Shown: in pieces, positions 1 to 14,451 of the stretch
How positions within the stretch are numbered: position 1 is the first letter of the stretch
Layout: every line of letters starts with the position of its first letter
Source of the DNA: Amoebidium appalachense
Lineage: Eukaryota; Protista; Ichthyosporea
Assembly (NCBI GenBank): GCA_963693365.1
Contig: CAVNZM010000006.1
Location: 11,597,355 to 11,661,354, forward strand
Direction of reading: 5' to 3'
DNA: 64,000 bases
Position numbers and translations under genes: made by a program
Notes under the pieces: model-generated
What the model was told of the DNA's origin: nothing
The model's database searches: none
The model's input: only the letters and a program-made list of their open reading frames with translations

Positions 1-69
1 CAATACTGTAATTGTGCCCGGGCGGGGGTTCATGGGCACAAGGATTGCCGTAAACGGTGCCATGAGGGT

Positions 70-300
70 GCATCGCACGATATATACGCCACGTTTGTTG
101 TGTGTACATCGCACGATAAATATGCTTCGTGGGTACATCGCACGATAAATAAATATGCTACGAGATAATGCTACGTGGGTACATCGCACAATTCACCTGC
201 ATGTGGGTGCATTCGCATCGCAAATTGTGTCGTGTGCGCATGCACATGGTGCATGGCATCGCACAAAAATATATTCAAATGTCGACGTGGGTGCATTGCA
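70..300. repeat. Degenerate short tandem repeats (catcgcac[ga]...) left of the element
   Basis: catcgcac recurs about five times, often as gtacatcgcacgataaat. Confidence 0.7.
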
Positions 301-627
301 CACTGCGGTGCGTGTGCACCTTTGCGTGAGTGCATTTATGTGATTGCATGCATGGGTGCCATGCGCACGTGAGCGCACGTGCTAGCACATGCAAGGTAAT
401 TCATGTACCATAGGGGTGATCACATGACGTGCATGGGAACAACACACGTGCCGTGTGGGTGCACGAACACAACACATATACATGTGGGTGAATGTGAAAA
501 GTGAATGTGATTGTTACCCCGTGGTTTCATGTGCACAGCATGTATGTTCGCGTACGTGGCCCCATCGGAACGAAGTTGAGTTGGCGCCTTCAATTTTATT
601 GCACCAATCACCGTGCGAGCTGGGTGA

Positions 628-842
628 ACACATGTCGTACCCCCCATTTCCGTGGTTTTTTTTGTAGCTCGAAAATAATGCATCATACAGTGCTCGACCC
701 GGCCGAGATACGTCCAAATTGGCGCTGGTTCAAGCGGTATAGGGGGAGCGCCCAGGAGGGCGTTCGATGGCTGGGTTGGGCTTTGTGATGGCATGCGGAA
801 TAGCTTTATTTGGCTAGAAGTTTTAGCCTTAGATGGCTTGAC
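628..842 (+). repeat. Left terminal inverted repeat of the Polinton-like element
   Basis: Reverse complement of 12610-12824; one mismatch noticed (827 vs 12625). Confidence 0.97.
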
Positions 843-893
843 TCTTGATTGTCAGCCAATCGCGTTTAGGGAAGGGCGTATACCAGCTCCACG

Positions 894-1397
894 ATGCCAA
901 ATACTGCTTTTTTGCAAGTTTTCCCGGGTACAGAAACTTTTTGTGTTTGTTGTATGTACATAAGGCATACCAGGTCCAAGATGATGCAAACCCAGGACAT
1001 TACCAGCGAGGGGCCAGATAAGATGGCAAAGTTAGCCTGCGAGTACATTCGTCTCAGAAAGCTGGGCAGAAACACAATGACGTACAGGGACACGGAGAAG
1101 AAGCGTGTATACTCCCGCCTGCTGATTAAATACATGCGCAGCCACCGGCTGCTCACATTGCAAATCCCAGGTGTGGATGATAAAGCCATTTCCCTGCAAA
1201 AGGTGAGGGGCAAAGCTGCAATGTCTCTAAAACGCATTCAACAAGCATGCAAGGAGTATTGTGATGCGGTGAAGGGAGGTAAACTTGAGCTCTCTCCTGA
1301 GACTATGATGGCGTTCATAACCACAAAGCAGCCTGAAACTACCAACTGGAAGCTTGCAGTCCAAGAGAAGTCTTCAGATTCATGGTTTGAGGCATGA
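894..1397 (+). CDS. Element ORF1: basic helical protein, tentatively like an NCLDV conserved family (DUF5760-like); start may be ATG 981 or 1023
   Basis: Intronless ORF just inside the left TIR; pattern L..EY.RL...KK...LIKYM....L..L.I...ISL...MS.K.I...Y...E.MM.FI...P resembles my recollection of that family. Confidence 0.55.
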   Translation: MPNTAFLQVFPGTETFCVCCMYIRHTRSKMMQTQDITSEGPDKMAKLACEYIRLRKLGRNTMTYRDTEKKRVYSRLLIKYMRSHRLLTLQIPGVDDKAISLQKVRGKAAMSLKRIQQACKEYCDAVKGGKLELSPETMMAFITTKQPETTNWKLAVQEKSSDSWFEA

Positions 1398-1429
1398 CAG
1401 AAATTAATTTTTGGGGATGAGAGGTAATC

Positions 1430-2146
1430 ATGGCTACACCCAGCGCAAACATGTTGGAGGCCCCGGGGCTTACAGAGGATTTGGTGGCTCTCGTGGCGGG
1501 CACCGACGAATCAGGGCAGGCAGGAAGGCCTCCCTCCATGACTGATAGTATGCTTGACCGTGATCTAATGGAAGCCGTGGAAAACAAAAGTGTGGCACGA
1601 CGAGAACGTGCAGAGGCTAGAGCTGCAGCCGAAGCCGCAGCCGGCGCTACACTAGCACTTGAAGCACAGGCAGGTGCCTCAGCTCCGAGGCTGGATGCAT
1701 CCAGCATGCATGATGCAGACACAGGCCCGCATGGCATTGCGGAGCTTAGTTGCTCGTCGCAGCATCTTGGTAGCATGACAAAGGCGTGTGGCCAGCTCCA
1801 TACAGTGCATGGTATAATCGTGTTATTTGCATACATAGCAACTACAGTGTTGAGGGTTATATCGAAGGGTATACAATTGATGGGGTGGCCTGAGAAGCTG
1901 CAGGGAGACCTTGCCAGTGGTGTGTTTGACTCGCACATTTACGCGCTGCTAGATGCGTGTACTGACGCGGCGCTGGTAAAAAATCCGATGCTGGAGCTGG
2001 GAGTGAGACTTACACTGTCAGCAATATTTCATCACAGAAGCTCGAAGCTAGCCCAGGCCGTCTCTCACGTCCACTGGCAGTCTGAGAGCATAGAACAGCC
2101 TCATGGGCAGCTTATGGACCATCTTGACCGATCTGTCACTGTGTGA
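1430..2146 (+). CDS. Element ORF2, 238 aa; C-terminal half tentatively like an NCLDV conserved family (DUF5767-like)
   Basis: Low-complexity N-terminus, then a hydrophobic helix and GIQLMGWPEKL...NPMLELGVRLTLSAIFHH, which resembles the recalled consensus DIKLDGWSE...APELKLLFMLGGSAFMFH. Confidence 0.55.
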   Translation: MATPSANMLEAPGLTEDLVALVAGTDESGQAGRPPSMTDSMLDRDLMEAVENKSVARRERAEARAAAEAAAGATLALEAQAGASAPRLDASSMHDADTGPHGIAELSCSSQHLGSMTKACGQLHTVHGIIVLFAYIATTVLRVISKGIQLMGWPEKLQGDLASGVFDSHIYALLDACTDAALVKNPMLELGVRLTLSAIFHHRSSKLAQAVSHVHWQSESIEQPHGQLMDHLDRSVTV

Positions 2147-2277
2147 CACCCAGTGTGCATGGAGTTCGAGTCTTTGAGCCACTTAGTGAGTGAATAAAAG
2201 TTTGTGGCTGAAATTTCCTGTTTCCGTGGGTTGCGATGTAAAAATTCCATTCATCCGTTCAACCCCAAATCTACATC

Positions 2278-3102
2278 ATGTCTGCGTTTGCCTTCCTGAA
2301 CCCCAGTAGCGAGGATACGACTGTAGGAGGCTACGGTAAGGCCTTCAATTACAAAGTGATTGCGTCATTGGTGCCTGCCAAAGAGCTTGCAACTGCCGTT
2401 GCCGAAGAGATGCCAGAAGCCATGCGGTACGTGCATGACAGACTGTCCGCAGCTTACGGTAGCAGCTACACACAGCACAACGTCAAGCAGTTCCTGCTCA
2501 CCTGGCCGGTGGCTATCAAAGCCTTCCATGATGCCACAACCCCAAAGATTAGTGCGCTTCGCCAGGCAGCGGAAGACAAATACAAGCTGCGCAGGGAGAG
2601 ACAGGAGGCAGACAAGCCCATCCGTGCCCAGGTCAACAAGCGTGTTGCACCCTACCTGCAAGGCTACCAGGGCTGCCTCATGAAGCGCTTGAAGCCGGAA
2701 GATTTCACTGAGTGTTCTACTCTGGCAAATATGGAAAACCAGGACAATCAGCTGGTAGGCAGGGGTGCCATGGTGCCTGTGCGTGGCCTTCGAGAGCGTG
2801 TGATAAACGAGAAGGGTATCGGTACATTGTTTAATGAGGAGATTGCACCGGCTGTGCAAGAGTACCAAGGTAGGCAGACAGGGGCATGGAATTCTGTATA
2901 CCCGCCTGGGGTAGCAAGGTCTATCGAGCAGCGTGGCTTCTACAGGGATGACAGGCAGCCCATGACAGAGACTCAGGCCGCTTTGCGCGGTATGCGACTG
3001 CAGCTTAAGGAGAGGCTGAATGCCGTCAAGCTCCGTGAAACACAGGAGGCTTTGCAGAGCATGGGTCAGAGGCCTTCGTTTGTTCTCAATGCTGCCCAGT
3101 AA
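2278..3102 (+). CDS. Element ORF3, 274-aa predicted helical protein of unknown function
   Basis: Long intronless ORF with ATG, AT-rich upstream spacer, convergent with the integrase; no recognisable motif and not jelly-roll-like by eye. Confidence 0.75.
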   Translation: MSAFAFLNPSSEDTTVGGYGKAFNYKVIASLVPAKELATAVAEEMPEAMRYVHDRLSAAYGSSYTQHNVKQFLLTWPVAIKAFHDATTPKISALRQAAEDKYKLRRERQEADKPIRAQVNKRVAPYLQGYQGCLMKRLKPEDFTECSTLANMENQDNQLVGRGAMVPVRGLRERVINEKGIGTLFNEEIAPAVQEYQGRQTGAWNSVYPPGVARSIEQRGFYRDDRQPMTETQAALRGMRLQLKERLNAVKLRETQEALQSMGQRPSFVLNAAQ

Positions 3103-3115
3103 AGAGTTTGTAGTA

Positions 3116-4249
3116 CTAGTGCCTGCCGCGATGGCGCTTTCTGCCAGACACGCCAGGCTGTGGGAATGTGGCAGGAACCGATCTCTTGTTGCCCATTTGG
3201 AACAAAATGTCGGCAGCATACAGGTCTTGCTGTAGCGGAGTCATGGCATCCAATATGGCCGATGTTTCCTTCTCTTGTTGTGTATGTGTGCTGGTGTCAG
3301 CGGGGGTGGGTAGTATGTCACGTGGGTGGCGGCGTCTGGTCACGCCCGGCTGCCCCTCAAGCTCCACTGTATACTTGAAGCCGGAAAGAAATTTGACAAC
3401 CCAGAGTGACGGGTCCCAATCCCCTGTGCCTGTGTTGACTGTCATGCTTTTCTTTGAAAAGAGCGCGTCTTTCAGTGCCTCGTCTGAGCGTATGCGCACC
3501 TTGTCGCCCGGGAGATACTTAAATGCTGTTTTCATGACTCGCTTTGCCTTCTTTACTGTTTTTAGGTGGTAGCGCTGCTCGTCGTGGTAGGTCACCAGGA
3601 ATGGAGGCTTGCCGCTGACTGCTGAGTGACATCGTGTGTTATATGTTAGTTCGATGTCCACCCACCCATTCTCATAAAAGAGGTTCAGGTAGGCAAGTCC
3701 TAGCTCAAACCTGCTTGCCATTAGCTCACGCAGGCTGCGATTAAACCTCTCCACGATGCTGTTGGCTCTATGATCGCCTGAATCCAGCATTATGTGCTGC
3801 ATGCCCATTCCCCTCACATAAGCTGTAAACTCGCCCTTGAATTCTGAACCCGGGTCTGTGATGAGCCTTTTAAAGGTGTGTGGTCCGTCTGCCCCTGCCA
3901 TGTAGTCGCTTGCTACGCCCGTGTACCCCCTGCTTGTTTCATTCTCAGGGCGCCATGCCACAGCTCTCAGAGCATACAATCTCCGAAGTGCTATTTTGAA
4001 GCCCTCTCTCACAGTGACAGAGTCACGGGCAGTCAGCGGTACCCACACTCCTCTCTTTGAGTTTACCTCGATGACAGTGAGTACAAACGGGTGTGCCTGC
4101 CCGGTCTGTGGATGCTTCTGCATACTTCCAAGGTCAATAGTGAGCACACGCTGGCGACCGGGGTATGTCAACCTCCAGCTTGCAAGGTACATGAGATCGG
4201 CATTCAGGGTCAGTGGAGGTGCTGTTACTGGAATGTCCATCTTAGACAT
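3116..4249 (-). CDS. Retroviral-like (rve, DDE) integrase of Polinton type
   Basis: LNADLMYL (D1), FVLTVIEVNSK, LITDPGSEF (D2), IVERFNRSLR (E, 34 residues after D2), YNTRCHSAV..PP, and C-terminal SH3-like YLPGDKVRIR. Confidence 0.95.
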   Translation of the reverse strand: MSKMDIPVTAPPLTLNADLMYLASWRLTYPGRQRVLTIDLGSMQKHPQTGQAHPFVLTVIEVNSKRGVWVPLTARDSVTVREGFKIALRRLYALRAVAWRPENETSRGYTGVASDYMAGADGPHTFKRLITDPGSEFKGEFTAYVRGMGMQHIMLDSGDHRANSIVERFNRSLRELMASRFELGLAYLNLFYENGWVDIELTYNTRCHSAVSGKPPFLVTYHDEQRYHLKTVKKAKRVMKTAFKYLPGDKVRIRSDEALKDALFSKKSMTVNTGTGDWDPSLWVVKFLSGFKYTVELEGQPGVTRRRHPRDILPTPADTSTHTQQEKETSAILDAMTPLQQDLYAADILFQMGNKRSVPATFPQPGVSGRKRHRGRH

Positions 4250-4284
4250 GCGAGCAACTTGCTTTCACAACCTTACCAAAATAA

Positions 4285-4794
4285 TCAACTTGCATGTGTA
4301 AAAGGTTCTATTTGGCCCGACTCTCTAAAAGTGGCTGGCATCAGCCTGGCCGCCAGCCAGCCCGGCAAGTCTGTAACAGGCTGAGACATGGTCTTCAGTG
4401 CTGTCTGGTCTAGGTGTTCAGTGGAGTGTGCTATCCATGTCGAAAACTTTTTCTCTATCTCCCAGAGGGAGACCTCTGGCTTTTTTAAATGTTTGTTAAC
4501 GCTGTTGTGAACGTCAATTAGCCAGGCAACCAGCGACTCTCGACCCTGTAAGGCAGCATCACCCAAAGCCAGCTTTCCCTTTACTAACATAGTCTGCCAG
4601 TGCCCGCGGCAGGACTCACATGGTAGCACGTGTCCTAAGCTGAAAAAGAAGTCTCTGTATTGTTTTCTATCGGCACTAGACGGTCTGGATGGGTAGCCAA
4701 AGGAGACAGCATGCAAAGAAAGCCACAGGTGCGGGCCCCAGTGGGTACTGTGTAAGTTATATCGGTCTACACTGAGTCTATGAACAGCATCCAT
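4285..4794 (-). CDS. Erv1/Alr-family FAD-linked sulfhydryl oxidase (NCLDV E10/B119L-like)
   Basis: WGPHLWLSLHAVSFGYP, LPCESCRGHW (CxxC), WLIDVHNSVNKHLKKP. Confidence 0.95.
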   Translation of the reverse strand: MDAVHRLSVDRYNLHSTHWGPHLWLSLHAVSFGYPSRPSSADRKQYRDFFFSLGHVLPCESCRGHWQTMLVKGKLALGDAALQGRESLVAWLIDVHNSVNKHLKKPEVSLWEIEKKFSTWIAHSTEHLDQTALKTMSQPVTDLPGWLAARLMPATFRESGQIEPFTHAS

Positions 4795-4916
4795 TGTCTA
4801 AGTTAATGCTATACTTGAACATAAAATGCCCCCATACTTGCGCCGCAAATGACAAACCAGTGACAACCACTGGCAGTTACCAATTCGAAAAAAAACCCAA
4901 CAAGTCAAACCAAAGC

Positions 4917-7900
4917 TCAAAAGCCATAGGGAGTAGAAGTGATTGTGTGCACGGTGCCGTCGTCATTCATCACCCGGTCATCGGGCTTGCAGATCAGACG
5001 CTTGGCGAAAGTCACACGCACTATCTTCTTCTCTGGCTGGGTCACGGGCTTCCCTCCGACCGTGCGTTTGATGCCATATGCTCTTTCAACAGTCAAGCCG
5101 GGGGTCTCGCGCAGGACAAGTCGAGTGTATGCATCTAGGTCCAGAATGTCGCGGGTAGCAGCATTAAATGGGACTCCTTTCATCTTGACACTATCTACCT
5201 CAGAGCCCGACACCTCCACTTTGCGATACGCATAGCTCTTGGGGCCAAGGCAGCGAAGTTTGGAAATGTGCTCGCCGGGCTTGAGCTCGTCTGCCAAATC
5301 CCCCAGAAGCATGCCTTTTTGAGGGTGGCAATGCAGGGGGTTGCTGCTGTCATAGATGTAGTAGATAGAGTCGGTGTCGCAGTACGCTGGCTGGCTGGGA
5401 TGTAGCTTATCCATGCTGATGTGCAGCTTGACACGGCCCCAGGCAGTGGTGCAGGCGGCGATGATGGGGCATGTGGTGATGTGCGATTGGCCAAGGGAAG
5501 CCGCCTTCTCCGATAGCTTGTATCGTACCAACACCCAGCCGGGTACATCCAGAAATCGGACATCTATAGCATCATAGTCCTTTGCCTCATACCTATCCCA
5601 CTTCTCCTTGAATGCCTTGTAGCCGTGCATGGTGTCAGGAAGCGTCATTGAGCCCCACTTATCGTGACGCTCGCCGGTTTTGCCAAAGGGGTTGACAATA
5701 ATGCTCTTAGCCAGAGCCACTCGGCCTGGATTTTTGGCTGCGGGGTCCATGATCTTCTCAGGGGTGAGGGCTAGTTCAGGCTGGGCCACAGGGTCTACAC
5801 CCATGCGCTGGTTGTATCTGCTGCAGTAGTCTGCGACCTGCTCGGGTGTCTTGCAGTGGCTGGGCACCCCATCACCTTGAGCCTTCACAGTGTACCAGTG
5901 CTTGATGAGCGGTGCAAATATGTCAACACTGGTCCGTTCATAGACACGAGCATACTTCAGGTCCAGCATCTCGTAGCCCTTGTACAGGGCGTACCTGATC
6001 TCCTGCACAGTCCACACATGTGTAATGGCACGCTCGTGCTCGCGGTGTCTGCATGTCCTGGGGGCGGAGGGACCAATCTCTGCGCATGCCCTGCACAGGG
6101 TCTCCACAAGGCGCTCAGTGACGTGTATCCGACCCTCCTCGAGGTCCCTGGGCTGCCTCTTGCCCACTGCAATCTTTGCCGACAGCACAGGCCGATGCAG
6201 ACCCCTAGGTGGAAGCATAGTGCATTCGACGAGGCCGAGTTTGCCATTGAAGAGATATGCATGCTCCCTAGGGAAGCCGGGAGGGACTCTGAAGCTGCTG
6301 CCAGTGCACTCGCCATCCGCCCGAAACAGCTGCTCAAACATCTGCGCAGGCGTTGGAGGGGTAGCTGTGCCATACCACAGCCCCACCAGGTCTATCTTGC
6401 GGTAGTTCACAAATGTACCTGCAGGCATGGGGCAGTCTAGTAGAATTGCTGGATAGTGGGACTTGTAGTCGACGACATACATGTACTCGCCGGGCTTGCA
6501 ATCGTGGTACAGGATGTAGCCATTGGTGCAGCCTCCCTTGAAAGCGTCGCGCTCTCTTGGTGGCTTCTGCATGGCAATGTGCAGCAACTTGTCGTGCTCA
6601 CAGAACCACTGCAAAGTCTCCTTCTGCCGCTGCCACTCGCAGCCCCAGATAGAAACCACCTTGTAGCCCATGGCGCGCAGCATCCCACTGCGGCTCTCTG
6701 TCTGCTGCCTTGTCTTGCCAGTCCGGCTATTGAGACCCTGTACTGCCATTGTTTCACAGTCATGGCCATGGAAGCGGCAGCCGTCGAACTCAAAGACTGT
6801 GTTAGTACGGGTGTCATACCCGTCAACATAGAGCTCACGGCCCCCAGCTGCAATCCGATACTGGCCATTGAGTTGCCAACGGAAGCGCCTGTCGAAGAGG
6901 TTGCTTGAATCGTAGCCGCAAATCTTCTCCCGCACATAGCACAGCCACTGCATCTCGTCCATACTAGACCACTGGTGCTTGTAGGGAGAGCCAAACTCAT
7001 GCACTATGGTGTTCTCGGGGAAGATTCTGTCTTGCAGCACGCCATAGACAAAGCTGCCAATAGTGGTACGCGCAAGCGGGTCGATGCCAGGGTAGGCCGC
7101 CTCCACCTCTTTCCTGTAGCAGACACAGGCCTCGCGCAGAATGAGGGTGTCCACCATGCAGTACTTTATGAGCTCCTCCCGATTGTTCCAGCCGGCGGGC
7201 CCGCGTGCTGCTGCCTCCTCCGCATGCCAAACACGAAAGTTTTCAACCTCTTTGGAGCTCTTCATCATCTGCTCAGGCGCCCAGTAGCTCTGGTCAGGCA
7301 GGGGTCCGACATAACCTTCGTGCTCTGGGGTGTTGAACAGGAGTGGATAGTTGAGCTTGCTCAGGCCAGCGTCGCCTGAAAAGCCCCACATTTGCGGGAG
7401 CTGGCTCAGTGGTCGAGGCATGTGGCGCACTGAGTCTTGCACTCGCACGCCATGGTACTGGAGGTATGGCACACTGCTGCCATCCATAATGAAGCTGAAG
7501 TCACCGTTAGCACTGTCAGGACTGCTCTTGCCCTCTCCGGACTTCATGGCGTGAGCTATCTCAGCGGGGCTCAGCTGCTCAAGAAGTGCGTTCAAAATGA
7601 AGTGTACGTCGTATTTTGCGCCATTGTGTGCGTATGCGATGAAGCCTGCATGTGCCGGTTGAAAGAGCCAAGCAATAAAGCGATTCAGGGCCTGCGGCCC
7701 CGCCCATATGTACACCTCCGGGGGCAGTTCAGAGTGCTTGCTCTGAAACCCAGGGCAGGTGCGTACCTCAACACCCGCCAGCAAAGCTTCATCGACTGGC
7801 TTGGGCGGGTTGACAGTGTAGCTGGCGACAACAACATTGACGTCTTGGGGCTGCCCAGTGCCAGCCCTCATGTATGCCTCAAAATCAAAGCATATGAGGC

Positions 7901-9314
7901 CGGCTGGGGTCAGGGTAGCCCGCTTTCTTGCTGACAGAGGCTGATAAGGCTTGTGGTTGATGAAGCAGAAGTGTGTGTCGCGATGGTTGAGCTTCATGCA
8001 TAGCCTGCACAGCTTCCAATCGCACACGCCCCACTCTTGGTGGAGCTTCCACAGTTCAGGCGAAGATTTGTCGATAGCTTGTGGGTCCTTATGCATGACC
8101 TGGCAGAGAGTCTCCCAGTTGCTCTTGTAGTCATTCCGCAGCTTCTTCTTGCTGCACAAGCGCACACAGCTGCTGCACCAGAAGAAGTTGGCCGAAAGTT
8201 TTGCACAAGTGTCGGCATCGTGGTTAGCTACACACTCAGCCGGGAGAGGAATGGCACAGCCAGTGCAAGTCATGGGGGTCAGGTCACCGTCAGCCGGAAA
8301 CACCAGCTGGTGTTGACCGTTTCTGACACTGCAGCTGTTGCATGGACTGCTGGCGCCACTATCCATGCTTGCTCTGACACACCTATGCTGGTGCCGGTCA
8401 ACCAAATCCAAGCACCAGTCGCATGGGGTCAGGTGCTTTGTTGTGGCAAAGGTACGCCCATGGAGAGCTCGCCTCCGCTCCCTGCACAGATGCAGTGCCT
8501 TCATATCCTTAATGAGCTGGACATGCTGATGCCCCCGGCCCCCTGACCCACTCACTGTGACGCCCTCAATGGCAAGGTAGGCAAAAACAACACGACCGCT
8601 GTCTTCTGCATCTGCTTTTAGCAGCTCGTTGTATGGCTGGGTACCCCGCTGAGGGATGCTGGCAAACACACGACAGTCATCGTCCAAATTTACAAGACGT
8701 AAACACAACATACGCTTGCCTGCCCCGAACTCACTGCTCCACACAGCGCCAGTGTTAATCAGGTACACAGCCTGCTCCATCTCCTCTCCGGTCCATGCAC
8801 GGCTCTCAATACCAGCAAACAGCTGGGGGTTGCTGTTTTTTACTGCTGCACGAACAATGTCGGCACCCTTTTCACGCGCGGACCGTGCCAGCCACCTAGG
8901 GTCTCCGTTCAGCTCATGCCGCCGATATTTGTCCAAAAGGACGGCAGCCGCCAGGTTGGTAGTAAAGCAGTCCTGCTTGCCCTTGCTGCTGTAGTCTGCA
9001 ATTGCACCATCTTTGCGCAAGTGTGCAGCATTGCTGTTTGCTTCATTGCTACGTTCCACACTAGAGAGGGGGCAGCCAACACGCATTCCAGCACGCCACT
9101 GCTGAAGCACATTGGTGGACCCTCCTTGCTGTCTGTCAGCTGCTTGATGCTCGGCAGTGCCAATTATCACCTCTATGTGGCAGCGCGAGAATTCAAAAGC
9201 AAATGTTGTGCCATACTGATGCTCCATATCACTGTAGTAGTCGCTGAGGCTACGCACCAGGCTGACACTGCGGACATCTGCAAGCGGCACAATGGTCTGC
9301 CATACCACTGTCAT
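4917..9314 (-). CDS. polB: Protein-primed family B DNA polymerase (pPolB), main part; true N-terminus displaced by the LTR insertion
   Basis: ExoI FDFEAY, ExoII AHNGAKYDVHFI, ExoIII YCMVDTLIL, inserted PD-(D/E)XK/VSR-like VDGYD...FEFDGCRFHGH, motif A DYKSHYP, motif B KSIIVNPFGK, motif C YCDTDS, GPKSYAY, KMKGV; N-terminal Cys/His pair and Zn-finger-like Cys clusters. Confidence 0.97.
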   Translation of the reverse strand: MTVVWQTIVPLADVRSVSLVRSLSDYYSDMEHQYGTTFAFEFSRCHIEVIIGTAEHQAADRQQGGSTNVLQQWRAGMRVGCPLSSVERSNEANSNAAHLRKDGAIADYSSKGKQDCFTTNLAAAVLLDKYRRHELNGDPRWLARSAREKGADIVRAAVKNSNPQLFAGIESRAWTGEEMEQAVYLINTGAVWSSEFGAGKRMLCLRLVNLDDDCRVFASIPQRGTQPYNELLKADAEDSGRVVFAYLAIEGVTVSGSGGRGHQHVQLIKDMKALHLCRERRRALHGRTFATTKHLTPCDWCLDLVDRHQHRCVRASMDSGASSPCNSCSVRNGQHQLVFPADGDLTPMTCTGCAIPLPAECVANHDADTCAKLSANFFWCSSCVRLCSKKKLRNDYKSNWETLCQVMHKDPQAIDKSSPELWKLHQEWGVCDWKLCRLCMKLNHRDTHFCFINHKPYQPLSARKRATLTPAGLICFDFEAYMRAGTGQPQDVNVVVASYTVNPPKPVDEALLAGVEVRTCPGFQSKHSELPPEVYIWAGPQALNRFIAWLFQPAHAGFIAYAHNGAKYDVHFILNALLEQLSPAEIAHAMKSGEGKSSPDSANGDFSFIMDGSSVPYLQYHGVRVQDSVRHMPRPLSQLPQMWGFSGDAGLSKLNYPLLFNTPEHEGYVGPLPDQSYWAPEQMMKSSKEVENFRVWHAEEAAARGPAGWNNREELIKYCMVDTLILREACVCYRKEVEAAYPGIDPLARTTIGSFVYGVLQDRIFPENTIVHEFGSPYKHQWSSMDEMQWLCYVREKICGYDSSNLFDRRFRWQLNGQYRIAAGGRELYVDGYDTRTNTVFEFDGCRFHGHDCETMAVQGLNSRTGKTRQQTESRSGMLRAMGYKVVSIWGCEWQRQKETLQWFCEHDKLLHIAMQKPPRERDAFKGGCTNGYILYHDCKPGEYMYVVDYKSHYPAILLDCPMPAGTFVNYRKIDLVGLWYGTATPPTPAQMFEQLFRADGECTGSSFRVPPGFPREHAYLFNGKLGLVECTMLPPRGLHRPVLSAKIAVGKRQPRDLEEGRIHVTERLVETLCRACAEIGPSAPRTCRHREHERAITHVWTVQEIRYALYKGYEMLDLKYARVYERTSVDIFAPLIKHWYTVKAQGDGVPSHCKTPEQVADYCSRYNQRMGVDPVAQPELALTPEKIMDPAAKNPGRVALAKSIIVNPFGKTGERHDKWGSMTLPDTMHGYKAFKEKWDRYEAKDYDAIDVRFLDVPGWVLVRYKLSEKAASLGQSHITTCPIIAACTTAWGRVKLHISMDKLHPSQPAYCDTDSIYYIYDSSNPLHCHPQKGMLLGDLADELKPGEHISKLRCLGPKSYAYRKVEVSGSEVDSVKMKGVPFNAATRDILDLDAYTRLVLRETPGLTVERAYGIKRTVGGKPVTQPEKKIVRVTFAKRLICKPDDRVMNDDGTVHTITSTPYGF

Positions 9315-9913
9315 GTGCTGAGCTGATTCGTATTAGTTTACTTCTATATTTTGTGTTTTGGTGAGTTAATTTCGGGGGTTTTCTTGCATAGTGATGCCGG
9401 GGTCTAAATGGGGTATGAGGAGATTAATCAGTGGTATGGGGAGAATCTGATGCAGCGGCGGCTGATTGTTTGGTGCGCGCGTGCATGCCCCATGCCTCTG
9501 CGTACTCTCCATGTTAAATGTTGTATTGCTTCTTGCTGTGTGCGTGGCGAGACCCATGTTGCCTGCTCGCGTGTGTGTATGCTTATATGTATTGTGAGTA
9601 AACGTGTGTACGTGTTGTAGTGCTGTAGGGGTGTCTGAGGTCGCGGTAGCCAATGGTGTGGAGTGCGTGTAGTCTGTGGGGGAGGGAGTGTTGTGATTGG
9701 CTGAATGTCACTGTGGTATTTGTCTGGCCAGTGGGCCGCGTGTCTGTGAAGTGTCTCGCGGGGTCGCGGGCTTTTGGAAGTTCTTCTCAGAACACAAAAA
9801 ACTCGCTTCCCACCCAACTCAAAGAAAAGTTTATACGTATACACGGTTTCGAGCCCCTTTAAGCGTGCAGATAGTTAGAGTAGTTCATATACACTCTGTT
9901 TGATGCCACGACA
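9309..9913 (+). repeat. 5' LTR
   Basis: Matches 11401-12005 at constant offset 2092; one mismatch noticed (9903 a vs 11995 t). Confidence 0.96.
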
Positions 9914-9925
9914 AGCTACACCCCC
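9914..9925 (+). promoter_or_regulatory. Putative non-canonical primer-binding site
   Basis: AGCTACACCCCC abuts the 5' LTR, lacks TGG, and is the reverse complement of GGGGGTGTAGCT (typical tRNA-Ala 5' end). Confidence 0.4.
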
Positions 9926-10208
9926 TTTCTCTGCAGTTTTTTGCAGGGAGGGGGCACACGCACTGTTAGTCCTTCTGGGCTGTTGCTTTCACCCCTAGTT
10001 TTTTTTTTTTTTCACGCCTAGCGGTTATGAGTGGTTTTGTCTTAGGCCTTTTTCGACGGTTAGAGGTAGAAGAAACATACGCACACACAGACCTACAGCT
10101 AGCAACAGTTGGCATAGGCAACATGAGCAGTAGGACTAGTATCACAGGGGACTTAGTCCTCGCTAAGGACCTTGACCTCCCTAGGTGACTTAGCAAGCTC
10201 AGGGCCGT

Positions 10209-10420
10209 TTGCCCAGCAGAGGCCTCAGAGGGGACCGGCGGCGGTCACCCTCCCCACGGCGCTACTGCCAGCCCTACCAGCCACGGCCACAACGGGATAA
10301 CAGATGGGCCAGACTAGCGTCTTTGGGCGGGACAGCAAGAGCCGGCGCCAGGCTCTTTCCCAGGTGTGCACCTGCGACAACTGCAAGGAGCGGGGGCAAC
10401 GCGTGGTGTAAACAGCCCCG
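10209..10420 (+). pseudogene. Decayed gag nucleocapsid remnant
   Basis: Arg/Pro-rich RGDRRRSPSPRR stretch followed in a shifted frame by C-D-N-C-K-E-R-G (from 10373), resembling a broken CX2CX4HX4C knuckle. Confidence 0.4.
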
Positions 10421-11389
10421 TCGTGGGGGGCAGGGACGTCGGTGACCGTGTTGCTGGTATGAAGGTTTTATTAGGGGGTAGGCCATCTCTTGGGTTGTTG
10501 TTGTTGTAATACTATGGGAGTAACTGTTGTGTGGTGTTATTTTTCGGCGAGTTTTCTACTGGTGCCTGGCGTTTTCGACGTGTGTATGAGTCCTGTGTTG
10601 GCGACGTGTGTGATTAGGGTCAGTGGAATAGAAAGTCCTGCTGCTGTCTGGGAGCTCGGCCCTCTGACGAGGGGGCTGGGGGGGGGTCGAAGTGTAGTCA
10701 TGGCAGTGGCAGGCCCCCACTGTTGTGAACCCCCGTCGTCAAAGGGCCTGGTGCTGAGGCCCCTTGGAGTGGCTGCCCTGGGCCTGGTGTTGAGGCCCTT
10801 TGGAGTGGCTGCCCGTAGTGTTGTTGAGTAGTGTTGTGGTGCCCAGTGCAGCAGTAGGCCTTAGACACACCGCTGGGTAGGGCACGGTTGGGGCGGAGGC
10901 ATTCCCAAACCACCGGGACCTACGTAGTAGGAGTCTTTGTCGGGTAGAGGAATGGCCAGCAAGAGAGTCTGGAGGTGTACGTCACATGAGTCTGGAGGTG
11001 TTCGTCAGTGGCATGTTAGGTTTTGCTAGGAATTCTTTGTGGATGGGGCATGCTGAGTGTGGTTGTATGGATGGTGTCTGTTATCATGTCTGTTGCTATG
11101 TTCCACTCGATATAACATTGTGCCAGGGGCATGGGGTTTTGGGTGCAGGTTGTGGACGGGGGCAGAGGTGCATCTACAGGGCAACGTCAGTGGCGGTTCT
11201 TATCCTTGTTTTGGGGTTGGGTTGGGTATTAACCATGGTGGGGTGGTGTGTGGATGTATGTATATGTTTTATGTTATATGTTAAATGTTGCTTCCTGCAT
11301 GGGTAGCGGTAGTTGTAGTCGCTCAGCACATAACTTTATTTTGTTTTTAGGTAGTTTTTACTGAGGTGGAACTCAGTTATTTTCTGTGC

Positions 11390-11399
11390 GAGGGGGGAG
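11390..11399 (+). promoter_or_regulatory. Polypurine tract of the LTR element
   Basis: GAGGGGGGAG, one base upstream of the TG start of the 3' LTR. Confidence 0.8.
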
Positions 11400-11400
11400 T

Positions 11401-12005
11401 TGTCATGTGCTGAGCTGATTCGTATTAGTTTACTTCTATATTTTGTGTTTTGGTGAGTTAATTTCGGGGGTTTTCTTGCATAGTGATGCCGGGGTCTAAA
11501 TGGGGTATGAGGAGATTAATCAGTGGTATGGGGAGAATCTGATGCAGCGGCGGCTGATTGTTTGGTGCGCGCGTGCATGCCCCATGCCTCTGCGTACTCT
11601 CCATGTTAAATGTTGTATTGCTTCTTGCTGTGTGCGTGGCGAGACCCATGTTGCCTGCTCGCGTGTGTGTATGCTTATATGTATTGTGAGTAAACGTGTG
11701 TACGTGTTGTAGTGCTGTAGGGGTGTCTGAGGTCGCGGTAGCCAATGGTGTGGAGTGCGTGTAGTCTGTGGGGGAGGGAGTGTTGTGATTGGCTGAATGT
11801 CACTGTGGTATTTGTCTGGCCAGTGGGCCGCGTGTCTGTGAAGTGTCTCGCGGGGTCGCGGGCTTTTGGAAGTTCTTCTCAGAACACAAAAAACTCGCTT
11901 CCCACCCAACTCAAAGAAAAGTTTATACGTATACACGGTTTCGAGCCCCTTTAAGCGTGCAGATAGTTAGAGTAGTTCATATACACTCTGTTTGTTGCCA
12001 CGACA
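11401..12005 (+). repeat. 3' LTR
   Basis: Copy of 9309-9913. Confidence 0.96.
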
Positions 12006-12358
12006 ACCACCTTGCCATGCACAGGGTCGTCCCCAATGAGCGAGTCGCGGCGTATGAGTTGGGTTTTAATTTGAATTCGGTCACCTGGCTGAGGGCATAC
12101 TAATTTGAAAAGCTGCACTGTGACATGCTCGAAAAACTCTTCGAAAGCCTCAGGGTCGACATCTTTTGGGTTATCAGCAGCACCATTGTGTACCACACTT
12201 AGAAGGTAGCGTGTAAATCCCAGGTTTCCCGTAGCCCGTGGTGGCTCTGCATGCTCAAGGCGGACAGCATCAGAGACACGTCCATGCGCAAGGTCGTCAA
12301 GGTCAGGCGGCACCCAGCGCACGGGTTCGGAATCTAAGTGCATGTGATCTTGAGCCAT
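12006..12358 (-). pseudogene. Separated 5' portion (about 116 codons, terminal-protein region) of the pPolB gene
   Basis: ATG at 12358 (MAQDH...); removing 9309-12005 plus one TSD joins ...HGK to VVWQTIVP... in frame. Confidence 0.9.
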
Positions 12359-12487
12359 GATTTGAATGGTATTAGGGTCAAGAAAAATTTCGTTGCGCGC
12401 TTTCAAAAGCTGCAAAATCGGCTACTTTAATCGGATTGGTTGTCTACCGAATGAAATCGGCTCTGCGATTGGACAAGCCGCAAAAAC

Positions 12488-12582
12488 GCCATCTAAGGCT
12501 AAAACGTCTAGCCAAATAAAGCTATTCCGCATGCCATCAGTGGCCATCACAAAGCTCGAAACGCCCCCGTGGGCGCGCTCCC
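12488..12582 (-). repeat. Internal partial and degenerate copy of the inner TIR segment
   Basis: gccatctaaggctaaaacgtctagccaaataaagctattccgcatgccatca (12488-12539) repeats about 12615-12666, then continues in decayed form. Confidence 0.85.
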
Positions 12583-12609
12583 AACCCTGAGCGTCCGATT
12601 GGACCCGGC

Positions 12610-12824
12610 GTCAAGCCATCTAAGACTAAAACTTCTAGCCAAATAAAGCTATTCCGCATGCCATCACAAAGCCCAACCCAGCCATCGAACGCCCTCCTGG
12701 GCGCTCCCCCTATACCGCTTGAACCAGCGCCAATTTGGACGTATCTCGGCCGGGTCGAGCACTGTATGATGCATTATTTTCGAGCTACAAAAAAAACCAC
12801 GGAAATGGGGGGTACGACATGTGT
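12610..12824 (-). repeat. Right terminal inverted repeat of the Polinton-like element
   Basis: Reverse complement of 628-842. Confidence 0.97.
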
Positions 12825-13266
12825 GTGAGTGACGTGTTAGGCCGCTGCAGCATCTTTGATTCGCGTAGCACGCATCGCCATTTCTCTATTTTTGTGTTTT
12901 CTTCTTTTTCTTGGTTTTTTTTTTTTTGCAAGTTTGCTTTGTCTCTCTTGTTGCCTATCGAGAGACCTGATCAGTGGTCGCTTCAGTGCCGCTGTCGACG
13001 TCAGAGCTGGCCAGAGTGCACGTATACTGAGGGGCAGTGGCTTTGCAGGAGTGTTGGTTACGGCCGTGCGCAGTGTCCACCAAGCACACCAAGTGGGCGG
13101 GTGGGCTGCCACCATGGCCACACCCTCCGCCCCATGTTAGTGCACCGCACCAGCAAGCCCTATCCCGCTGCCCTACCGCCCAGAGCACACCACCACCAAT
13201 ACCCAGCCTATGCCTGCAAACACCTGCCTAGCCTGCCTCCTGCCTTAGTGTGCGCTGTGACCAAAC

Positions 13267-13846
13267 ATGCCGCACTTTGTGAACGGTATGTGGTTGTGCC
13301 GGGGGGGGAGGGAGGGGGGGAGGGGGAGGGGGTGGTAGTGGGGGGAGGGACCGGGTGGGGACGGGGAGAGGGGGAGGAGGGGAGGGGGAGGGGGGGAGGG
13401 GGGGAGATGGGGGGAGGGGGTTGACGAGGACACTTTTTTGGAACACAGCGCTGGGGGGTGGCAGCGATGAGGACGACGGGACGTTCGAACCGTTTGGGCT
13501 GCACGGCACGCACGACACATACCCGCTGGGGGCGCTGGGCCCAGACAGGGCCACGGCCGAGGGCAGTGGGGACGAGGACGAGGACAGTTTGGGCGACGAG
13601 CAGAGGAACCCTGAGGGGCAGGCGGGGCGCTGGGTGCTGGTGCGGCTGCAGCTGCTGCAGGGCGGCGCGGCGCTGGTGTGGTTTGTGCTGCTGGTGGTTG
13701 CTATGCCCAGCCAGGTGCGCGCCATGGTGGGCGACACAACAAAGGGCACGGCCATAGGCGCCATGGCCGCAGTCAATGCAAGCATATCCCTCGTCGGCAG
13801 CCCCCTGTGTGGCCTGATGAGGTGTGATAAGTTTTAGAAGCCCCCT

Positions 13847-13880
<34 letters not shown>

Positions 13881-13948
13881 GCCCCCGCTCCCCCGCCCCC
13901 CTCTTTTGTTGTTTGTTTTCGTTGTACTTCGTATGACCATGCCGCGAG

Positions 13949-13981
<33 letters not shown>

Positions 13982-14451
13982 TACAGTGACCGTCTGCGTG
14001 CTGGGCGCTACCGGCGGCTGCCTGTAGTTGTGTGTGGGGCGCTAGCAGTGGGGCTGCTGCTGCAGGGCATGGCCTTTGTCTGCCCCCACATACCCCCGAC
14101 CCCTGCCCAGCACCAGGCTGGCCCCTGCAAGGCCACGCCCACCCCCTCAGACCCAGCAGGGCTGCAGCCAAGCGGCGGCCTGGGCAGCTACACGGTGGCC
14201 TTTGTGCTGGTGTCGGCCGGCTATCTGTTTGTGCAGGTGGGTGGCTGGGCACGTGCAACACACAGGCACACAGGTCACAGGCAGGCACTGTGATAGACAT
14301 GCACGTGTGGGATCAACACACCCTCAACGGTGCGTGGTGGTGTGCGCACATGGAAACAAACAGACGCAAGGAGCCACATTTATCCGCACAACATATTCAA
14401 GCACACGTACTCACAGACACAGACAAGCACCACACCTATACGCTAACACAC

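Follow-up and report, generated by a model that had tools for sequence, protein, structure and literature searches.

An Erv1 oxidase gene and two probable remote relatives of giant-virus protein families in a Polinton-type element without a recognisable capsid gene

Two short reading frames lying side by side in a 64,000-nucleotide stretch of the Amoebidium appalachense genome (the whole of which is called the window here) raise the question of what genes resembling those of giant viruses are doing in a eukaryotic chromosome. The original prediction took them for conserved NCLDV proteins of unknown function, ORF1 being DUF5760-like and ORF2 DUF5767-like, and suggested that together with an Erv1 gene they formed a captured functional module rather than random cargo. 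Both frames are real, and they are co-oriented and 32 nt apart.

ORF1 and ORF2 belong to a mobile element bounded by 215-bp terminal inverted repeats (TIRs) and spanning positions 628-12824 of the window, the features of which are collected in Table 1. Inside the repeats lie ORF1, ORF2, ORF3, an RVE integrase, Erv1 and a protein-primed family B polymerase (pPolB), and the flanks have the appearance of repeat-rich eukaryotic DNA. The target-site duplication (TSD) is an exact 4 bp, with a 6-bp reading, containing one mismatch, possible if the right end is taken to be 2 bp longer. A scan of 18 long frames from the rest of the window turned up no viral Pfam match, and Rfam returned no match within positions 1-14000. 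This is a Polinton-type element, present in several copies, that was inserted recently into a eukaryotic chromosome. At its right end, positions 12466-12710 contain an internal partial duplicate of TIR sequence, within which 12488-12582 resembles 742-837 at 82%.

Table 1. Features of the element and of its immediate borders, in window coordinates
Feature	Position	Strand	Basis
Left target-site duplication GTGA, 4 bp	624..627	.	Identical 4 bases at 12825-12828, past the right TIR
Left TIR, 215 bp, beginning with a short AC repeat	628..842	+	1 mismatch (position 827) against the right TIR
ORF1, DUF5760-like, 167 aa	894..1397	+	Pfam DUF5760 match and our own profiles; probable start 981 (138 aa)
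ORF2, DUF5767-like, 238 aa	1430..2146	+	DUF5767-like C-terminal half (about residues 110-210) after a low-complexity N-terminal half
ORF3, 274 aa	2278..3102	+	No credible match in Pfam, PHROGs, PDB sequences or the fetched loci
RVE (retroviral-type) integrase, 377 aa	3116..4249	-	Weak Pfam rve and rve_3 matches; PHROG transposases
Erv1/Alr sulfhydryl oxidase, 169 aa	4285..4794	-	CESC active-site pair; Pfam PF04777 at 70.9 bits against a cut-off of 27.6
Protein-primed family B polymerase, main part	4917..9303	-	Pfam DNA_pol_B_2, E 3e-12
Secondary LTR-type insert, no recognised coding sequence	9309..12005	+	605-bp LTRs at 9309-9913 and 11401-12005; TG...CA ends; 5-bp TSD ACCAC
Polymerase 5' part, cut off by the LTR insert	12006..12358	-	Frame arithmetic and the empty form in reads
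Right TIR	12610..12824	-	Pairs with the left TIR
Right target-site duplication GTGA	12825..12828	.	Copy of the left GTGA

The replication and integration genes are of Polinton type. The polymerase has exonuclease and palm motifs, a nuclease-like insert and a putative vOTU Cys/His pair, whose residues sit at the site assigned by Krupovic et al. to the vOTU protease in polinton polymerases (PMC11161782). Six homologues were found, at 27-32% identity (27-28% for the best), the two named ones coming from an insect, and the metagenome loci related through the polymerase carry gene sets that, judged by eye, are Polinton-like. No match to a helicase domain was found in the element. D-D-E-type motifs could be located in the integrase, which matches the integrase of a pPolB locus (phmmer E 2e-12); as queries, neither the integrase nor Erv1 found a close viral locus. 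ORF3 may be a fourth divergent viral protein. Among the seven ORFs of the element there was no match to a jelly-roll major or minor capsid protein in Pfam, PHROGs or PDB sequences, and none to a packaging ATPase or maturation protease in Pfam or PHROGs; to judge from its predicted proteins, this is an element without a recognisable capsid gene.

The polymerase gene is currently split by 2,702 bp, the result of a very recent LTR insertion whose two LTRs differ at one position. Position 9303 is joined directly to 12006 in contigs from three of four read runs, and so an insert-free form exists in the reads; in that form the polymerase frame comes, by frame arithmetic, to 1,579 codons and the native element measures 9,495 bp. 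The LTR-type insert is itself high-copy, its summed depth being about 100 times that of the element in two DNA runs. Variants of the TIRs are abundant in the reads (window 658-733, 908-963 and 12794), and read contigs in which the element's ends run on into other sequence would represent related or non-autonomous elements. One minor copy retains ORF1 and the ATG of ORF2 and then departs, at position 1432, into about 855 nt unlike ORF2, a stretch close to the ORF2 slot in length that would be either a replaced gene or a very divergent allele; since this copy leaves the ORF2 sequence at the start codon, ORF2 may be replaceable.

The likeness of ORF2 to DUF5767 holds up as a remote one, and better than that of ORF1 to DUF5760. 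The motif on which it was first noticed, GIQLMGWPEKL...FD...NPMLELGVRLTLSAIFHH, is present C-terminal to a hydrophobic stretch (residues 126-144, mean Kyte-Doolittle 2.0). Pfam returns no match at E up to 10 for the whole or trimmed protein, the cut-off of PF19071 being 26.9 bits, and sequence searches found no relative of ORF2 among 5.8 billion proteins or of its residues 110-227 among 1.84 billion. The resemblance rests on three partly independent routes: a pairwise match, clusters in the ESM Atlas and profiles. The first is to L235, a Pfam-verified DUF5767 member, with 34% identity over 62 aa in BLASTP (pairwise E 2e-5; E 4e-4 among 75 members). In the ESM Atlas the top three clusters are DUF5767 (scores 0.90-0.91), as are 23 of the 30 matches, the annotation being carried by 20-34% of the members of the clusters concerned. 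For the profiles we used 64 distinct DUF5767 domains from viral contigs (all four of those tested with Pfam were DUF5767) and 11 from giant-virus bins. ORF2 scored 6.1 bits on the first domain profile and 8.8, 10.3 and 11.2 bits as profile diversity rose, with no shuffle out of 4,000 reaching its score on any of the four; since one chance frame among 3,028 also attained 6.1 bits, weight attaches to the later, more diverse profiles alone. With a profile built from full-length DUF5767 proteins, ORF2 gave no score at P 0.01, and the hhalign probability for ORF2, as a single sequence, was 2.6%.

Within DUF5767 (PF19071, Nucleocytoviricota) the nearest resemblance is to one subtype. A pattern built from ORF2 and L235 found two stretches, the contig of L235 itself and another, L249, whose protein is DUF5767 by Pfam (E 3e-10) and has the NPxxELG variant in common with ORF2. 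The L-x-G-W, P and L positions and the C-terminal helix of this NPxxELG subtype align with ORF2, and an all-helical layout is predicted for both. The FEELxEKY motif of DUF5767 is absent from ORF2, and also from the verified members L235 and L249, and so is not universal. ORF2 differs from the family in lying below Pfam detection, in its length (238 aa, against 292-568 aa in typical members), in a more hydrophobic first helix and in its very long branch; in the tree it attaches beside L235 and L249, with another placement also standing (AU test p 0.24). Because the structural model (pLDDT 70, four helices) derives from a DUF5767 alignment, its fold matches are circular: the giant-virus proteins that Foldseek returned matched weakly (the best at E 0.11 and TM 0.72, with nothing reaching E 0.001), and there was no clear match to any solved fold (best Z 6.4). 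The DUF5767 profile likewise produced chance matches only against the PDB. Variants of ORF2 in the reads comprise six replacement and two synonymous codons and frame-keeping indels in the low-complexity half, and one replacement and one synonymous change near the C-terminus; all of those seen fall outside the conserved domain. We regard remote homology to DUF5767 as quite likely, with ORF2 probably a remote, shortened relative of the family. We found nothing to back a link between DUF5767 and vaccinia A11: in PMC4542343, A11R is given as a gene conserved in poxviruses only.

The case for ORF1 is of the same kind and weaker. The expected pattern KK....LIKYM is present, and the start given in Table 1 is preferred because DUF5760 members of 113-140 aa align from that ATG. 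DUF5760 is the sole Pfam match of ORF1 (E 0.025) and covers positions 3-83 of 86, at 15.2 bits against a cut-off of 27 for PF19064. On DUF5760 profiles of 5, 7 and 12 members ORF1 scored 11.7, 13.3 and 11.4 bits, reached by none of 4,000 shuffles; on a 15-row profile it scored 11.2 bits, which two of 4,000 shuffles reached, and on a profile of the halves of L244 and L249 it did no better than shuffles. The alignment with DUF5760 (PF19064, Nucleocytoviricota) is colinear from the first helix to the last strand at 8-18% identity, and the lengths are similar. Sequence searches found no relative of ORF1 among 5.8 billion proteins, and tblastn no match in 50,697 phage records. Its nearest ESM Atlas clusters are mostly tailed-phage proteins, not DUF5760; the seven-member DUF5760 profile has chance matches of up to 21.7 bits in the PDB, above the 13.3 bits of ORF1; and a single-sequence model was poor (pLDDT 52), making a fold search from that model meaningless. 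The earlier assignment is sustained by a sole Pfam match along the whole domain and weakened by a score below the cut-off and by the phage clusters. We judge it probable that ORF1 is homologous to DUF5760 or to a superfamily with DUF5760 among its members.

Several observations touch on the wider relations of this family. A true DUF5760 member (L204:1405-1770) weakly matches DUF7307 (E 2e-4) and Sipho_Gp157 (E 0.01), hinting that DUF5760 may share a superfamily with phage proteins. Proteins of 276-278 aa in GC-rich giant-virus bins (L244:1480-2307, L249:6063-6896) resemble two tandem DUF5760-type domains. ORF1 differs from the 13 DUF5760 members aligned in having a CxxxC pair, which they lack; it occupies residues 119-123 of 167 (window 1248-1262), and in another copy a synonymous change leaves its second Cys intact. 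A CxxxC motif is also found in vaccinia A2.5, the partner of the E10 oxidase.

Whatever its ancestry, ORF1 is a functional gene under purifying selection between copies. The comparison across copies that the original prediction called for shows, in a second copy, 10 synonymous changes over 45 sites and two replacement changes over 156 sites, a pN/pS of about 0.06; another short contig adds one synonymous and one replacement change.

Of the three genes, Erv1 is the one that passes its Pfam cut-off. The FAD-site motifs WxxxH and HNxVN could be located, and the CxxC is intact. Among solved structures in the PDB the best match is mimivirus R596 (86.7 bits), followed by yeast Erv1 (48) and the ASFV enzyme (42.6), which bears out the view that this Erv1 is giant-virus-like; in a tree of 30 viral rows, built without cellular ones, its placement is unsettled and falls outside the R596-like clade. 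It shares with the viral Erv oxidases (mimivirus R596, ASFV pB119L and vaccinia E10) a compact Erv domain with CxxC, and differs from R596 in being without that protein's C-terminal domain. Unlike the viral enzymes, it has no recognised virion proteins encoded beside it. Viral Erv enzymes have in some cases been found at factories and virions (PMC3509050). Elsewhere, a giant-virus gene (L215:9442-10170) has two Erv domains in tandem.

Gene neighbourhoods bear on whether these three genes constitute a module. In the element itself Erv1 is not adjacent to the ORF1-ORF2 pair, lying 2.1 kb away on the opposite strand. In a set of 46 DUF5767 loci, from which those under 4 kb had been dropped, a DUF5760-like gene occurs in two, an Erv gene in three and all three families together in none; 22 Erv loci include DUF5767 in three cases and DUF5760 in none. 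In one short locus outside the 46, about 1.3 kb separates DUF5760 from an Erv-like gene. DUF5767 usually neighbours an A22-type resolvase (in 33 of 43 loci), and for DUF5760 a P11 minor capsid gene is found less than 1 kb upstream in 4 of the 11 loci. DUF5760 and DUF5767 are some 7.5 kb apart in CpV-BQ1 (PMC12085832). The order seen here does have a counterpart in the giant-virus contig L249, where a co-oriented gene of 278 aa comes immediately before DUF5767, with a gap of about 75 bp. The 278-aa gene has no Pfam match itself and is 31% identical (E 1e-27) to L244, which in turn has a sub-cut-off match to DUF5760 (E 0.002), so that its DUF5760 link is transitive. Both families are at home in giant viruses, DUF5767 passing the Pfam cut-off in 10 and DUF5760 in 8 of 12 giant-virus bins, a sample biased by having been reached through motif matches, and neither passing it in 14 control genomes. 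Conversely, none of DUF5767, DUF5760 and Erv was found in 80 other pPolB loci (491 kb in all, 21 of the loci being 8 kb or longer).

These counts divide the original prediction. The three families form no general cluster in giant viruses, and the captured module finds one precedent, L249, for its DUF5760-like-then-DUF5767 order and none among the DUF5767 loci for the set of three. The genes are not ordinary Polinton proteins, to go by the other pPolB loci, and all three do resemble giant-virus families, ORF1 and ORF2 remotely and below Pfam cut-offs. The trees tie no single donor to ORF1, ORF2 and Erv1; that the ORF1-ORF2 pair was captured in one event is plausible.

In proposing an explanation we need to account for an element that has giant-virus-like genes and no recognised virion proteins of its own. 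It is best read as an integrating element that resembles transpovirons and hitch-hikes on, or parasitises, a giant virus. Tentatively, we suggest that ORF1 and ORF2 are cargo of a Polinton-type element without a recognisable capsid gene, and probably remote relatives of giant-virus families, that would act with Erv1 at the assembly site of a helper, the element either travelling along or profiting at the expense of the virus. The RVE integrase would insert the element, whose linear form the polymerase would copy starting from the ends. Since viral Erv enzymes are in some cases found at factories and virions, an Erv oxidase whose element has no recognised virion proteins of its own would need the assembly site of another virus. 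On the analogy of the gene neighbourhoods, the hydrophobic helices of ORF2 might bind membrane (DUF5767 being found beside the A22 resolvase) and ORF1 might be a small helical adaptor (DUF5760 beside the minor capsid P11). We favour an assembly-site role because a transposon confined to the nucleus and without virion proteins would have little use for an Erv oxidase and two probable assembly-linked giant-virus genes. It is possible, and we put it with distinctly more reserve, that a chromosome-integrating, capsid-less satellite brings its own versions of DUF5760, DUF5767 and Erv1 to redirect the membrane and disulfide steps of its helper for its own packaging. Were this true, the element would be a Polinton-derived counterpart of transpovirons, and would offer a six-gene system for finding the function of two widespread, uncharacterised giant-virus families.

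The genes could instead be piecemeal cargo, taken by a capsid-less Polinton from giant viruses in one capture or two (ORF1 with ORF2, Erv1 on its own) and each kept for its own use without cooperating. The absence of the three-gene cluster from both the 46 DUF5767 and the 22 Erv loci is what this would predict, as are the position of Erv1 on the other strand, the minor copy that diverges from the ORF2 start codon onwards, and trees that resolve no donors. Against it, three of the four genes besides polymerase and integrase resemble giant-virus families, as none does in the other pPolB loci, and ORF1 is under purifying selection; we consider uncooperative cargo doubtful, if a serious contender.

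A second alternative turns the relationship around, with the element benefiting its host. Endogenous virophages lower giant-virus yield, and host protection has been reported for endogenous virophages and PLVs; a shortened ORF2 and divergent ORF1 might by the same logic serve as dominant-negative mimics that spoil giant-virus assembly, and the shortness of ORF2, its want of FEELxEKY and its very long branch would all suit such a decoy. The intact CxxC and FAD-site motifs of Erv1 would be needless for it, however, and long branches are expected of any mobile-element gene, and we think an antiviral role unlikely.

The element might also be a segment or reduced form of a virus of its own, with capsid and ATPase on a sister element with related TIRs and with Erv1, ORF1 and ORF2 serving the assembly of its own particle. 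The abundance of TIR variants in the reads, and the contigs in which the same ends run into other sequence, are compatible with such a sister, and replication modules have been reported to move independently of morphogenetic ones (bioRxiv 10.64898/2026.10.13.758929). Yet no capsid gene was recognised in the element, none of the 18 other window frames has a viral Pfam match, and Erv1 is not reported for Polintons or PLVs in the literature searched, which together leave this idea with a slim chance.

Finally, that ORF1 is one of a broader family of long-helix proteins from phages and viruses (of DUF7173, DUF7307 or Gp157 type) and that ORF2 matches DUF5767 through convergence of amphipathic helices, leaving only Erv1 giant-virus-like, would agree with the tailed-phage clusters, the matches of L204, the chance PDB scores of the DUF5760 profile and hhalign probabilities of 2.6% and 5.8% against single sequences, but is very improbable when ORF1 has no tblastn match among phage records and DUF5760 as its sole Pfam match, and when ORF2 matches a verified DUF5767 member and its score climbs with profile diversity, up to 11.2 bits after an initial 6.1.

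Precedents exist for elements without virion genes. Nine Polinton elements without MCP, protease and ATPase have been described (PMC4028283), and further capsid-less pPolB elements are known (PMC13215967; bioRxiv 10.64898/2026.10.13.758929). An Erv1 gene in a Polinton or PLV was not found in the literature searched, of which supplements and subscription papers could hold an example. Erv terms are absent from the main texts of bioRxiv 10.64898/2026.06.19.733378, 10.64898/2026.10.09.758095 and 10.64898/2026.10.13.758929, whose supplements could list such genes, and Erv1, DUF5767 and DUF5760 terms are absent from eight supplementary files of PMC13215967. DUF5767 and DUF5760 are each named in a single paper of the literature searched, as a table entry without function. 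A six-gene element that keeps an Erv1 and probable DUF5767 and DUF5760 genes without a recognised capsid gene points to a common step in the assembly of giant viruses and provides a small system in which that step might be probed. It also suggests that Polinton derivatives may live as integrating parasites of giant viruses by means of helper-type genes.

Set against known systems, the element of our preferred reading, the integrating hitch-hiker or parasite, stands between two of them. With Polintons and Mavericks it shares the pPolB, the RVE integrase and the long TIRs (215 bp with one mismatch); its polymerase is full-length with the putative vOTU Cys/His, and the nearest polymerases are in Polinton-like loci. 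It departs from them in its TSD as read at 4 bp, that of Polintons and Mavericks being usually 6 bp, and in carrying Erv1 and two giant-virus-like genes, seen in none of the 80 pPolB loci. Transpovirons are small, linear, capsid-less elements of 6-8 genes (PMC3671162), which encode a fusion of pPolB with an SF1 helicase (PMC11161782); no such fusion is found in our element. With the transpovirons of mimiviruses it has in common its small size, a predicted linear form without a recognisable capsid gene and, as proposed here, a dependence on giant viruses; it differs from them in the lack of a helicase match, in a full pPolB with exonuclease motifs and in its location within a host chromosome.
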